The translations under genes were made by a program, and so were the position numbers. From assembly GCF_003334315.1 (NCBI RefSeq), contig NZ_QOWR01000046.1: 38,030 nucleotides of DNA; one strand, written 5' to 3'. Positions 7,772-28,664 of the stretch are shown piece after piece. Within the stretch, counting starts at the first letter, position 1; the number at the start of each line of letters is the position of its first letter. This stretch comes from Escherichia coli (GTDB lineage: Bacteria; Pseudomonadota; Gammaproteobacteria; Enterobacterales; Enterobacteriaceae). The notes under the pieces are model-generated. The model was given only the letters and a program-made list of their open reading frames with translations, searched no databases and had not been told where the DNA came from.

Positions 7772-8038
7772 ATGGAATGGCTGGTCAAAAAATCGTGCTG
7801 CAATAAACAAGATAACAGACATGTACTTATGCTCTGCGATGCTGGCGGCGCGATAAAAATGATCGCCGAAGTGAAGAGTGACTTCGCCGTGAAAGTGGGG
7901 GATTTACTCTCGCCTTTGCAGAATGCGCTTTATTGTATTAATCGTGAAAAGCTGCATACGGTGAAAGTCCTCTCGGCAAGCAGTTATAGCCCCGATGAGT
8001 GGGAACGGCAGTGTAAAGTGGCAGGGAAAACTCAGTAA
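7772..8038 (+). CDS. pmrD: Signal transduction connector protein PmrD (polymyxin resistance)
   Basis: 88 aa from ATG at 7772 ([18 protein letters not shown]...); the track ORF starts further upstream at 7742 in the same frame. Confidence 0.85.
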
Positions 8039-22465: not shown

Positions 22466-23269
22466 ATGAACGCATTATTAAGCAATCCCTTTAAAGAACG
22501 TTTACGCAAGGGCGAAGTGCAAATTGGTCTGTGGTTAAGCTCAACGACTGCCTATATGGCAGAAATTGCCGCCACTTCTGGTTATGACTGGTTGCTGATT
22601 GACGGGGAGCACGCGCCAAACACCATTCAGGATCTTTATCATCAGCTACAGGCGGTAGCGCCCTATGCCAGCCAACCCGTGATCCGTCCGGTGGAAGGCA
22701 GTCAACCGCTGATTAAACAAGTCCTGGATATTGGCGCGCAAACTCTACTGATCCCGATGGTCGATACTGCCGAACAGGCACGTCAGGTGGTGTCTGCCAC
22801 GCGCTATCCTCCCTACGGTGAGCGTGGTGTCGGGGCCAGTGTGGCACGGGCTGCGCGCTGGGGACGCATTGAGAATTACATGGCGCAAGTTAACGATTCG
22901 CTTTGTCTGTTGGTGCAGGTGGAAAGTAAAACGGCACTGGATAACCTGGACGAAATCCTCGACGTCGAAGGGATTGATGGCGTGTTTATTGGACCTGCGG
23001 ATCTTTCTGCGTCGTTGGGCTACCCGGATAACGCCGGGCACCCGGAAGTGCAGCGAATTATTGAAACCAGTATTCGGCGGATCCGTGCTGCGGGTAAAGC
23101 GGCTGGTTTTCTGGCTGTGGCTCCTGATATGGCGCAGCAATGTCTGGCGTGGGGAGCGAACTTTGTCGCTGTTGGCGTTGACACGATGCTCTACAGCGAT
23201 GCCCTGGATCAACGACTGGCGATGTTTAAATCAGGCAAAAATGGGCCACGCATAAAAGGTAGTTATTGA
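22466..23269 (+). CDS. rhmA: 2-keto-3-deoxy-L-rhamnonate aldolase (HpcH/HpaI aldolase family)
   Basis: 267 aa from ATG 22466 preceded by TAAGGAACACG. Confidence 0.9.
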
Positions 23270-23309
23270 TATCAAAGGCCCATGGGGATCGGCTGTGGGC
23301 CTGTGTTAA

Positions 23310-23495
23310 TTAGTGGTTATTCGCTGCCAGATCGGCTTCGCTTAGCTGGGTGGCCGCGAGCACCTGGTCACGATCAAAGCCCTGTTCCAGCATGCGCAAA
23401 GCAATTTTAATGGCTTGTTCATGCAAACCTTCTAATTTACCTTCCTGCCAGCCAATTTGATGTCCTTCCTGCCGCAGCCGTTCAGCAATAGTCAT
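23310..23495 (-). CDS. ypaA: Small protein YpaA: free-standing duplicate of the RpnB C-terminal tail (RpnS-like small protein)
   Basis: 61-aa ORF; AAGGAGAG Shine-Dalgarno directly after the rpnB stop codon; protein [19 protein letters not shown]...[16 protein letters not shown] nearly identical to the last 56 residues of RpnB. Confidence 0.75.
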   Translation of the reverse strand: MTIAERLRQEGHQIGWQEGKLEGLHEQAIKIALRMLEQGFDRDQVLAATQLSEADLAANNH

Positions 23496-23691
23496 TAATC
23501 TCTCCTTTTAATGACAGTTCGGAATATCAGCATCAGTGAGTTGGGTTGTCGCCAGCACAATCTCACGTTCAAAGCCCTGCTCCAGCATGCGCAAAGCAAT
23601 TTTAATGGCTTGTTCATGCATACCTTCCTGCCAGCCAATTTGATGCCCTTCCTGCCGTAGCCGTTCAGCAATAGTCATTAATCTCTCCTTT
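23313..23691. repeat. Tandem direct duplication (about 180-195 bp unit) of the rpnB 3' end including its internal SD and ATG; copies at about 23313-23509 and 23511-23691 with a 12-bp indel
   Basis: Long identical runs in both copies, e.g. ccagcatgcgcaaagcaattttaatggcttgttcatgca and ttcagcaatagtcattaatctctcctttt. Confidence 0.85.
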
Positions 23692-24407
23692 TGTAGTGGT
23701 GAACGTTCGGCAATCTCCTCAATAAAACGGGTGAAACGGGAGGTATCGCCGCATTGCAGCAGATAATTAAACAGTGTTTGTAGCTGGCTGTCATTAGTGA
23801 AGCCTCTAACCAAAAGCGTGGTGATCCTGTCGACCATGCCGATTAAATCGCGGTCGCGAATATGCTTTTGAATCAGTTCCAGCAGAGCTATACGCCGATG
23901 TTGCATGATCTCATCGTCAGGTACGATGGTGATATCCACCAACGGAAAAGCTTCGGTGTACAACTGCCGGGCAAGTTGCGGATCGTCAAACTCATCCAGC
24001 CAGTTGAGTGAGTACGGGTAAGGCGAGGTTTCGCCATGATAAAACAGCAACGGCACCACCAGCGGGACTCTGTCATAGCCTTTGTCCAAGTGACGCTGCA
24101 TGGCGGCAGTGGCATAGCGCATTAGCCGAAAAGCCATATTCTTTTCTGCAGAGCTTTGATGTTCAATCACGCAGTAGATATAGCCGTCACCGTCGCTGGT
24201 TTCCACGGACCACAAAACATCCGAGTAGTAAGCGCGTAAACTTTTTTCAATAAAACTAGTGGGTTCCAGGCGTAAGGTTTGCAGGTTGCAAAGCTTGCGC
24301 AGTGGTTCTGGTAAATGTATTTCGAGAAAATCCCGTGCGGTTTCGGGTGTGAACATAAAGGTTTTAAATACCGCATCATGCGGGGAGGAGGTTGTTGATT
24401 CGGTCAT
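23508..24407 (-). CDS. rpnB: Recombination-promoting nuclease RpnB (YhgA-like, Transposase_31 / PD-(D/E)XK family)
   Basis: 299-aa ORF, recognised YfaD/RpnB sequence; internal AAGGAGAGattaATG at 23676-23690 in frame with the C-terminal tail. Confidence 0.88.
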
Positions 24408-24552
24408 GGTTATCCGTCACCTGATATTTATGATGACGCGACATTACGGTTATCCCAGGCCTTTGACATCTGCCAGTTTCAGCCTTTGCGAGACGTTTTC
24501 AGAGGAATTTTCACTGCGTTGCAACGCATACATTGGGCACGGAATCGTGTAC

Positions 24553-24588
24553 GCAAAAATGCCCGGTAACCACATGCTTACCGGGCAT
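24553..24588 (-). terminator. Rho-independent terminator of glpABC (minus strand: atgcccggtaa-gcatgtgg-ttaccgggcat-TTTTT)
   Basis: 11-bp perfect stem, 8-nt loop, followed by five T on the transcribed strand, 12 nt after the glpC stop. Confidence 0.7.
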
Positions 24589-24599
24589 CAGAAAGGAGT

Positions 24600-28664
<4,065 letters not shown>

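Follow-up and report, generated by a model that had tools for sequence, protein, structure and literature searches.

Probable tandem duplication of the RpnS antitoxin module at the 3' end of rpnE in Escherichia coli, with a derived in-gene end and signs of continuing exchange between the copies

We suggest that the 3' end of the rpnE gene carries a tandem duplication of its RpnS module, that the two copies differ by one unit of a short in-frame repeat, that the end of the in-gene copy is the derived one, and that the copies continue to exchange sequence with each other. The locus was analyzed in a 38,030-nt stretch of an Escherichia coli contig (NZ_QOWR01000046.1, assembly GCF_003334315.1), referred to here as the window, and we hold this composite reading to be probable. 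Under this proposal, the duplicated unit would be the antitoxin module (RpnS, a three-helix HTH_Rpn_C domain) of a gene within a gene: the upstream copy would form the C-terminal domain of RpnE_L, the long protein, and would also be translated separately, from internal start codon M244, as the small protein RpnE_S, while the downstream copy would be ypaA (RpnE_Ss), with an identical ribosome-binding site of its own. By analogy with RpnA, RpnB and RpnC (Zhong et al., 2023), an RpnS protein would bind the C-terminal domain of the matching RpnL via helix 1 and block the nuclease, and, on the RpnC precedent, only partners with equal repeat numbers would pair. The object itself and the nature of its indel are already known, and they represent ordinary behavior for the Rpn family; what is added here beyond the published account is the polarity and the junction of the duplication, an in-gene end that hardly varies between species, and the continuing exchange.

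On the minus strand of the window, glpC is followed by an open reading frame of 299 codons (23508-24407), by one of 61 codons (23310-23495) and then by the convergent yfaU. Comparison by megablast with 5,426 complete E. coli genomes, and with the record of MG1655, identified the long frame as rpnE (yfaD, b2244) and its short neighbor as ypaA (b4543). The original prediction had called the tail-bearing gene rpnB, and this name is wrong, rpnB (yfcI, b2305) being a separate gene about 65 kb from rpnE in K-12. Its description of the two tails was accurate: both copies lie on the minus strand where it placed them, the 12-bp indel and the diverged distal ends were confirmed, and the peptide strings that it quoted, ...WQEGKLEGLHEQ...DRDQVLAATQLSEADLAANNH for ypaA and ...WQEGMHEQ... 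for the in-gene tail, are exact in the translation. Only 4 nt separate the window from MG1655 within 23200-24500, and both tail sequences are identical to those of K-12, which makes the two-copy array described here the K-12 array. Two tail modules, and no more, are present in the 38-kb window. The ypaA frame begins 10 nt past the rpnE stop codon and is a separate gene that encodes an RpnS domain alone. The features of the locus are as follows.

23508-24407, minus strand: rpnE (yfaD, b2244), encoding RpnE_L, 299 aa, with a PD-(D/E)XK nuclease-family body and a C-terminal RpnS domain; annotated as rpnE in K-12 and other E. coli.
23508-23678, minus strand: G copy, the in-gene tail, encoding the 56-aa RpnE_S from internal start codon M244 (ATG at 23676-23678); contains a single WQEG unit.
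23683-23690, minus strand: Shine-Dalgarno sequence AAGGAGAG for RpnE_S, 4 nt upstream of the ATG and inside a 72-nt repeat of 97% identity, as read from the sequence.
23310-23495, minus strand: ypaA (b4543), or RpnE_Ss (D copy), a free-standing 61-aa RpnS homolog with two units (WQEG KLEG) and a putatively ancestral-type C-terminus.
23500-23507, minus strand: Shine-Dalgarno sequence AAGGAGAG for ypaA, abutting the rpnE stop codon TAA (23508-23510) and conserved in all sampled two-copy loci.
23427-23438, minus strand: 12-bp indel AAATTAGAAGGT, K20-L21-E22-G23 of YpaA, one extra four-residue (dodecamer) repeat unit in the alignments.
23313-23375, minus strand: ypaA distal segment DRDQVLAATQLSEADLAANNH, the putatively ancestral-type rpnE end, covering predicted helices 2 and 3.
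23526-23570, minus strand: in-gene distal segment, the putatively derived G-type end, 15 residues; its comparison with ypaA covers the 16 aligned codons at 23523-23570.
23496-23525, minus strand: probable duplication junction ATT CCG AAC TGT CAT TAA + AAGGAGAGATTA, a shortened leader copy according to the leader alignment.
23276-23302, no strand assigned: terminator-like hairpin between the convergent ypaA and yfaU, from a consensus scan.

The string AAGGAGAG-ATTA-ATG is found at M244 of rpnE and again at M1 of ypaA, so that the two small frames have identical, strong ribosome-binding sites and the long gene contains an in-frame internal start with a ribosome-binding site of its own. The RpnE_S start corresponds by homology to residue 1 of the RpnA_S crystal chain 7TH0. 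A consensus scan of 23150-24650 found no sigma-70-like promoter, a weak negative, and from the lack of a promoter-like site we infer that ypaA is co-transcribed with rpnE or rpnE_S. Internal translation starts have been reported in all rpn genes (Meydan et al., bioRxiv 520783; also PMC10400941), and the former study published start peaks from ribosome profiling and noted that the internal product of rpnE is similar to YpaA.

The RpnE_Ss of Zhong et al. (PNAS 2023, PMC10400941) is the same object as ypaA. In their account it is a second copy of RpnE_S, named rpnE_Ss, that lies downstream, is detectable after SPA tagging, varies in its repeats, and can be lost either through deletion or by becoming fused to the rpn body; RpnC likewise has a free-standing downstream copy of its small protein, RpnC_Ss, in some strains. 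The same authors demonstrate an antitoxin role for the small C-terminal RpnS proteins, which bind the long nuclease RpnL and block it, and hence the original suggestion that the tail may be an inhibitor is already published biology. They present anti-phage defense as demonstrated for the plasmid-borne RpnP2 only, and the accompanying commentary (PMC10400984) sums up their points likewise. The passages of the PMC10400941 main text that were searched contain no description of fixed distal divergence, of an ancestral end in ypaA, or of cross-species identity of the in-gene end.

Assignment of both proteins to the family is straightforward. RpnE_L has an N-terminal PD-(D/E)XK nuclease domain of the YhgA/Transposase_31 family: it scores 699.5 bits against NCBIfam NF007418 (cut-off 583), passing the equivalog cut-off for this Rpn family, and matches TIGR01784 at E = 7.8e-51 over residues 9-295; PF04754 is recorded on its close homologs. 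YpaA matches 7TH0 (RpnA_S) at E = 3.4e-4 over residues 1-59, an end-to-end alignment that includes a common start motif. Its AlphaFold2 model (mean pLDDT 76) has helices at residues 3-37, 42-49 and 53-58, and these three predicted helices match the three-helix bundle described for RpnA_S, whereas the distal helices are only weakly similar and RpnA_S has a 12-residue gap, the sole gap of the alignment, at the repeat site. Helices 2 and 3 of the model fall outside the published dimer interface. PF27070 (HTH_Rpn_C) is precomputed on all of the best 120 YpaA homologs listed; a Pfam-A scan of YpaA with a library that lacks HTH_Rpn_C returned no family at E <= 0.001, DUF4351 (PF14261) included. PADLOC-DB 2.0.0 has no matching model for the locus. 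In classical type II toxin-antitoxin systems, a small helical protein in excess binds and inhibits a toxic enzyme, and orphan or extra antitoxin genes occur. The rpnE arrangement differs from these in that the antitoxin is encoded inside the toxin gene and in the same frame, and in that specificity would be set by the number of repeats in a dimerization helix.

The two tail copies are mosaic in their conservation. A repeat search recovered two direct repeats, one of 72 nt at 97% identity (23438-23509 versus 23621-23692, spacing 183) and one of 102 nt at 84% identity (23331-23432 versus 23526-23627, spacing 195), and the shift of 12 nt in spacing between the two blocks is the 12-bp indel. Tandem Repeats Finder reported no repeats in 23250-23750, the two diverged copies falling below its score. 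Between ypaA and the in-gene tail there are 2 mismatches in the 57 nt of the 5' part, 1 in the 48 nt of the center and 16 in the 48 distal nt, and the contrast between 3/105 and 16/48 is significant (Fisher p = 5e-7); the mosaic pattern of a near-identical center and diverged distal ends, as originally predicted, is therefore real. By Nei-Gojobori estimates, which are rough, as are the invariance statistics given below, given the short segments (48-75 nt), dS is 0.15 and dN 0 over the 5' part and center, compared with a dS of 0.98 and a dN of 0.32 over the 16 distal codons. At the protein level the two copies are 75% identical over 61 columns.

The boundary between the copies bears the mark of tandem duplication in situ. 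The copies cease to be homologous at 23526, and from there the last codons of rpnE, together with AAGGAGAGATTA, form a shortened copy of the leader ATTGCCGAACGTTCACCACTACAAAAGGAGAGATTA (about 23679-23713) that stands before the internal start. From this junction RpnE takes its ending IPNCH* and ypaA its ribosome-binding site; PNCH* is read in another frame because the in-gene end terminates in the duplicated leader. In-situ tandem duplication would thus explain both why the extreme C-termini of the two copies differ and why the ribosome-binding site of ypaA sits right after the rpnE stop codon.

The extra 12 nt of ypaA (23427-23438) encode KLEG, which is one whole unit of a repeat of the form [W/K/L]-x-[E/K/Q]-G that follows HQIG, with units beginning at residue 16. 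Zhong et al. describe RpnS and RpnSs proteins as differing from strain to strain by four-residue repeats within the long helix 1, which is the dimer interface (PMC10400941), and we can state that the indel is this already known hypervariable repeat, the specificity dial of the family. It falls within the predicted helix 1 of YpaA (residues 3-37) and, on the AlphaFold2 model, would lengthen that helix by about one turn. We counted units in 19 two-copy loci, a convenience sample consisting of 16 E. coli strains including the window, one metagenome contig, Escherichia fergusonii and Escherichia sp. E4385, and found 1-9 in the in-gene copies and 1-7 in the ypaA copies; in the window, RpnE_L and RpnE_S have one and YpaA has two. 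A mismatch in unit number between the copies is not universal. That the copies are never equal, which was suspected from the first 13 loci, was refuted by the enteropathogenic strain E2348/69, with 5 and 5 units.

Where it has been mapped, the determinant of RpnS/RpnL pairing is this repeat number and not the distal segment (PMC10400941, Fig. 4D and its text): in RpnC, a single added unit (KGIE) abolishes inhibition unless both partners carry it, in both directions. The original prediction had looked to the divergent segment for a possible change in partner specificity. Extending to RpnE a rule whose experimental basis is RpnC, we predict that YpaA pairs mainly with itself and is a poor inhibitor of the resident RpnE_L, because it has two units and RpnE_L and RpnE_S have one. 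In RpnC the unit was added, whereas at rpnE the difference of one unit (KLEG) occurs naturally and separates two copies within one locus. It is possible, if rather doubtful, that YpaA neutralizes RpnE_L in spite of the mismatch and so raises the dose of antitoxin. Helix 1 outside the repeat is nearly identical in both copies, ypaA abuts the rpnE stop codon in a way that favors coupled expression, and such an activity would also explain why K-12 RpnE looks inactive: when overexpressed, it caused no toxicity, SOS induction or recombination activity (Kingston et al., PMC5350276), and the host strains of those toxicity tests, to judge from the same paper, carried chromosomal ypaA and rpnE_S. Against this stand the RpnC result, in which one extra unit was enough to abolish cross-inhibition both ways, and the K-12 protein itself, in which two positions that are otherwise invariant carry substitutions private to K-12, L107Q and P155L. 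The window allele has neither of them, and they could alone account for the inactivity of RpnE in K-12.

The distal difference, unlike the repeat, is fixed between module positions. Tails aligned from 17 E. coli loci show that in all two-copy strains among them the in-gene copy ends in EREIVLA(T/A)TQL(T/S)DADIPN(C/G)(H/Y) and the downstream copy in DRD(Q/L)VLAATQLSEADLAANNH, a pattern that is neither random decay nor strain noise. In all seven single-copy E. coli that were fetched (BL21, an O157-like strain, 127, SaT040, N12, RM13322 and WR3-3), the full-length gene carries the ypaA-type end. Outside E. coli, a search of species-representative genomes, which with its 120-aa query reaches only close rpnE relatives and returned 21 loci, recovered rpnE orthologs in E. 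albertii, E. whittamii, Escherichia sp. MOD1-EC7003 and E1V33, several Citrobacter and Salmonella enterica diarizonae, all of them single-copy. These genes are syntenic, with glpC upstream in all and yfaU or a remnant of it downstream in 5/5 Escherichia and 3/7 Citrobacter loci. The single-copy rpnE of the four other Escherichia has the ypaA-type end, and the end in Citrobacter and Salmonella belongs to the same family (I-D/E-R-D-L-V...), with 24-26 mismatches in 48 nt to that of E. coli ypaA. Over the distal 48 nt, the distance of E. coli ypaA from the other Escherichia species is 3-9 sites. For the in-gene copy it is 13-17 sites, comparable to the distance that separates this copy from Citrobacter sedlakii. 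From this comparison of orthologs, ypaA appears to keep the ancestral 3' end of rpnE, since the syntenic single-copy genes of other Escherichia have it and Citrobacter and Salmonella have an end of the same family, and the in-gene end appears to be derived. We note that this reverses the earlier framing of the locus: ypaA holds the original end, and the in-gene end is the newer piece.

A 96-nt probe composed of the in-gene end, the junction and the start of ypaA matched 3134 of the 5426 E. coli genomes, in each case on the chromosome and over its full length, and it follows that within this set the in-gene end never occurs without ypaA behind it and that the free-standing ypaA layout downstream of rpnE is present in the same 3134 genomes. 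The array is absent from the other 42% and from several Escherichia species, and is present in E. fergusonii and Escherichia sp. E4385. In these two, the stretch made up of the in-gene distal end and the junction has 1 mismatch to the window in 75 nt (0-1 nt in the distal segment alone), compared with differences of 4% in glpC, 11-13% in the intergenic sequence, 5-11% in the first two thirds of rpnE, and 8-12% in the ypaA distal end plus spacer. At synonymous sites the in-gene distal end is nearly saturated relative to ypaA, yet the same from one species to the next. The history that we infer as the best explanation is that this end arose once, in a diverged rpnE-like lineage, and then spread horizontally by homologous recombination.

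Would an ancient, vertically inherited duplication do as well, the in-gene end having diverged in place under diversifying selection and its identity across species reflecting strong constraint? The junction does indicate that the duplication occurred in situ, the array is found in three Escherichia species, and the distal dN amounts to substantial amino-acid change. We nevertheless consider this account improbable. Synonymous sites of the in-gene end, which stand at a dS of about 1 from ypaA, are identical across species whose flanks have diverged by 4-13%, and constraint on the protein does not freeze synonymous sites; the absence of the array from so many E. coli genomes and from several Escherichia species also speaks against long vertical descent.

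For the single origin followed by horizontal spread, a donor was sought in several places. None was found among the K-12 paralogs, among the 21 loci from species-representative genomes (close rpnE relatives only), or among the best 120 small-protein homologs listed, where the EREIV-type ends all carry the junction-derived PNCH, PNCY or PNGH, or a recombinant or variant thereof. A tblastn search of PLSDB plasmids likewise yielded no donor: the matches of at least 72% identity were all E. coli records, four of the five of megabase size and evidently chromosomal, and true plasmid Rpn tails were at most 53% identical. Standalone small proteins of the in-gene type were considered as possible three-copy arrays and rejected as such, since the one that was checked (P0004) comes from strains with a truncated rpnE body.

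Gene conversion over the center, one of the two explanations originally put forward for the mosaic, fits the data. Among 11 two-copy loci, the 93 non-repeat nucleotides of the 5' part and center have 5 shared polymorphisms and 0 fixed differences. In the distal 48 nt the balance is reversed: 10 differences are fixed and 1 polymorphism is shared. Individual alleles tell the same story: the K-12-type ypaA encodes Phe (EQGF), as the in-gene copy does, at a codon that specifies Ile in most ypaA alleles, and its KLEGLHEQ is also found in the in-gene copy of strain H22. BL21 is the exact fusion expected from a crossover in the center of a K-12-like array, and chimeric ends with breakpoints inside the distal block occur in E. 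coli SCPM-O-B-8794 and in protein P0033. The shared polymorphisms, the single-copy fusions such as BL21 and the chimeric ends indicate that the copies keep recombining over the 5' part and center, and exchange appears to end where sequence divergence removes homology.

It is tempting to go further. Because the 5' part and center keep exchanging with the in-gene tail, ypaA may be a reservoir, and the two-module array could be seen as a recombination cassette in which ypaA, as an expressed reservoir, resets the repeat number and with it the pairing specificity, the horizontally spreading in-gene end having displaced the ancestral tail into the free-standing gene. We regard this extended scenario as unlikely. 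It is also conceivable that the nuclease of the same locus might initiate the recombination events, as Zhong et al. speculated (PMC10400941).

It is very improbable that ypaA is what remains of a transposase-like gene, a pseudogene fragment in decay whose differences are neutral. RefSeq does label it a pseudogene in MG1655 and incomplete, missing the N-terminus, elsewhere, and the inactivity of K-12 RpnE in the overexpression assays (PMC5350276) could be taken in the same sense. However, the open reading frame, the ATG and the Shine-Dalgarno sequence of ypaA are intact in 19/19 two-copy loci, including those of two other species, and its differences from the in-gene tail are confined to one block and conservative, the indel being in frame and a whole repeat unit. 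The notion of a decayed, unexpressed copy fails as well on expression, for the SPA-tagged protein was detected by Zhong et al. (PMC10400941) and the start peaks in ribosome profiling are on record (bioRxiv 520783).

The second explanation originally offered for the mosaic, a tail gained by recombination from another rpn paralog of the same genome (whether that of ypaA or that of rpnE), is scarcely credible, for while all Rpn tails have a common start motif and a similar C-terminal '...LSxxxL...' that make ectopic recombination conceivable, neither distal end resembles the K-12 rpnA-D tails (identity of about 0.6-0.76 at most, over short and noisy stretches), ypaA is identical to none of those tails, the ypaA-type end is orthologous at the glpC-yfaU site in other Escherichia and has a related end in other genera, and RpnE_Ss clusters with RpnE_S in the analysis of Zhong et al. 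(PMC10400941).

The general picture of Rpn systems is unchanged by these results, and we would point to three matters on which they bear. The statement that RpnE is inactive may be a K-12 strain artifact, given the two private substitutions in the K-12 allele. The natural mismatch of one unit between RpnE_S and YpaA in K-12-like strains provides a ready-made case in which the repeat-number rule can be taken beyond RpnC. Lastly, an apparently ancestral end preserved in ypaA, together with an in-gene end shared between species, bears on how defense-like genes diversify.

K-12 MG1655 RpnE carries two private substitutions, L107Q and P155L, which an alignment of rpnE bodies places at the following codons of the long nuclease-family gene in the window:

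24087-24089, minus strand, rpnE codon 107
23943-23945, minus strand, rpnE codon 155

The window has leucine at 107 and proline at 155, as does each of the 22 further Escherichia rpnE bodies in the comparison, which took in four other species; RpnA, RpnB and RpnC also have leucine and proline at the aligned positions. The published result that RpnE is inactive was obtained with the K-12 allele (PMC5350276). Because that assay used an allele with these private substitutions, we suggest that RpnE inactivity may be peculiar to the K-12 MG1655 lineage.

RefSeq labels MG1655 ypaA, the free-standing second copy of the rpnE tail, as a pseudogene, and in most other genomes as a hypothetical protein, incomplete, missing N-terminus. 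Despite these labels, the ypaA ORF is intact at every locus sampled, two of which give its extent:

23310-23495 in the window, ypaA ORF
7817-8002 in comparison locus L001, ypaA ORF

Experimental detection of the YpaA protein has been published (PMC10400941). Meydan et al. state that YpaA and the rpnE internal product are 98% identical (bioRxiv 520783); in the K-12 sequence, the two share ~75% identity over 61 columns (window 23310-23678). We also note that in several strains (L011, L012, L013, L051) ATTGATG replaces ATTAATG at the start of ypaA; the altered base lies 2 nt upstream of the ATG and so directly precedes the start codon region.

Some E. coli assemblies have an rpnE nuclease body shortened to 200 or 238 residues, with both small tail ORFs unbroken and annotated as separate genes:

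L043 1271-2477, truncated rpnE body and two tail ORFs
L044 1272-2477, truncated rpnE body and two tail ORFs

Such a locus is therefore left with two antitoxin-like genes and no intact toxin. In strain UTME-10, the tail region is interrupted by IS2 (L017 761-1989), which sits between the rpnE body and one remaining tail. E. fergusonii, Escherichia sp. E4385 and a number of metagenome contigs (L046-L048; L049-L052) lack most of the rhamnonate cluster (yfaU, yfaV, rhmD) downstream of ypaA and keep at most a fragment of an IclR-type regulator. At L046-L048, the deletion downstream of ypaA has given the protein a new C-terminus (...TEADLAPLSLQ), adjoining yfaY.

Among the sampled two-copy loci, only that of a derivative of EPEC E2348/69 (L058) has equal numbers of four-residue repeat units in its in-gene tail and ypaA (5 and 5), and the unit sequences are nearly alike between the two copies. 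L058 would serve as a naturally occurring control for the published RpnC repeat-number rule, by which only RpnS and RpnL partners with equal unit number pair (PMC10400941).
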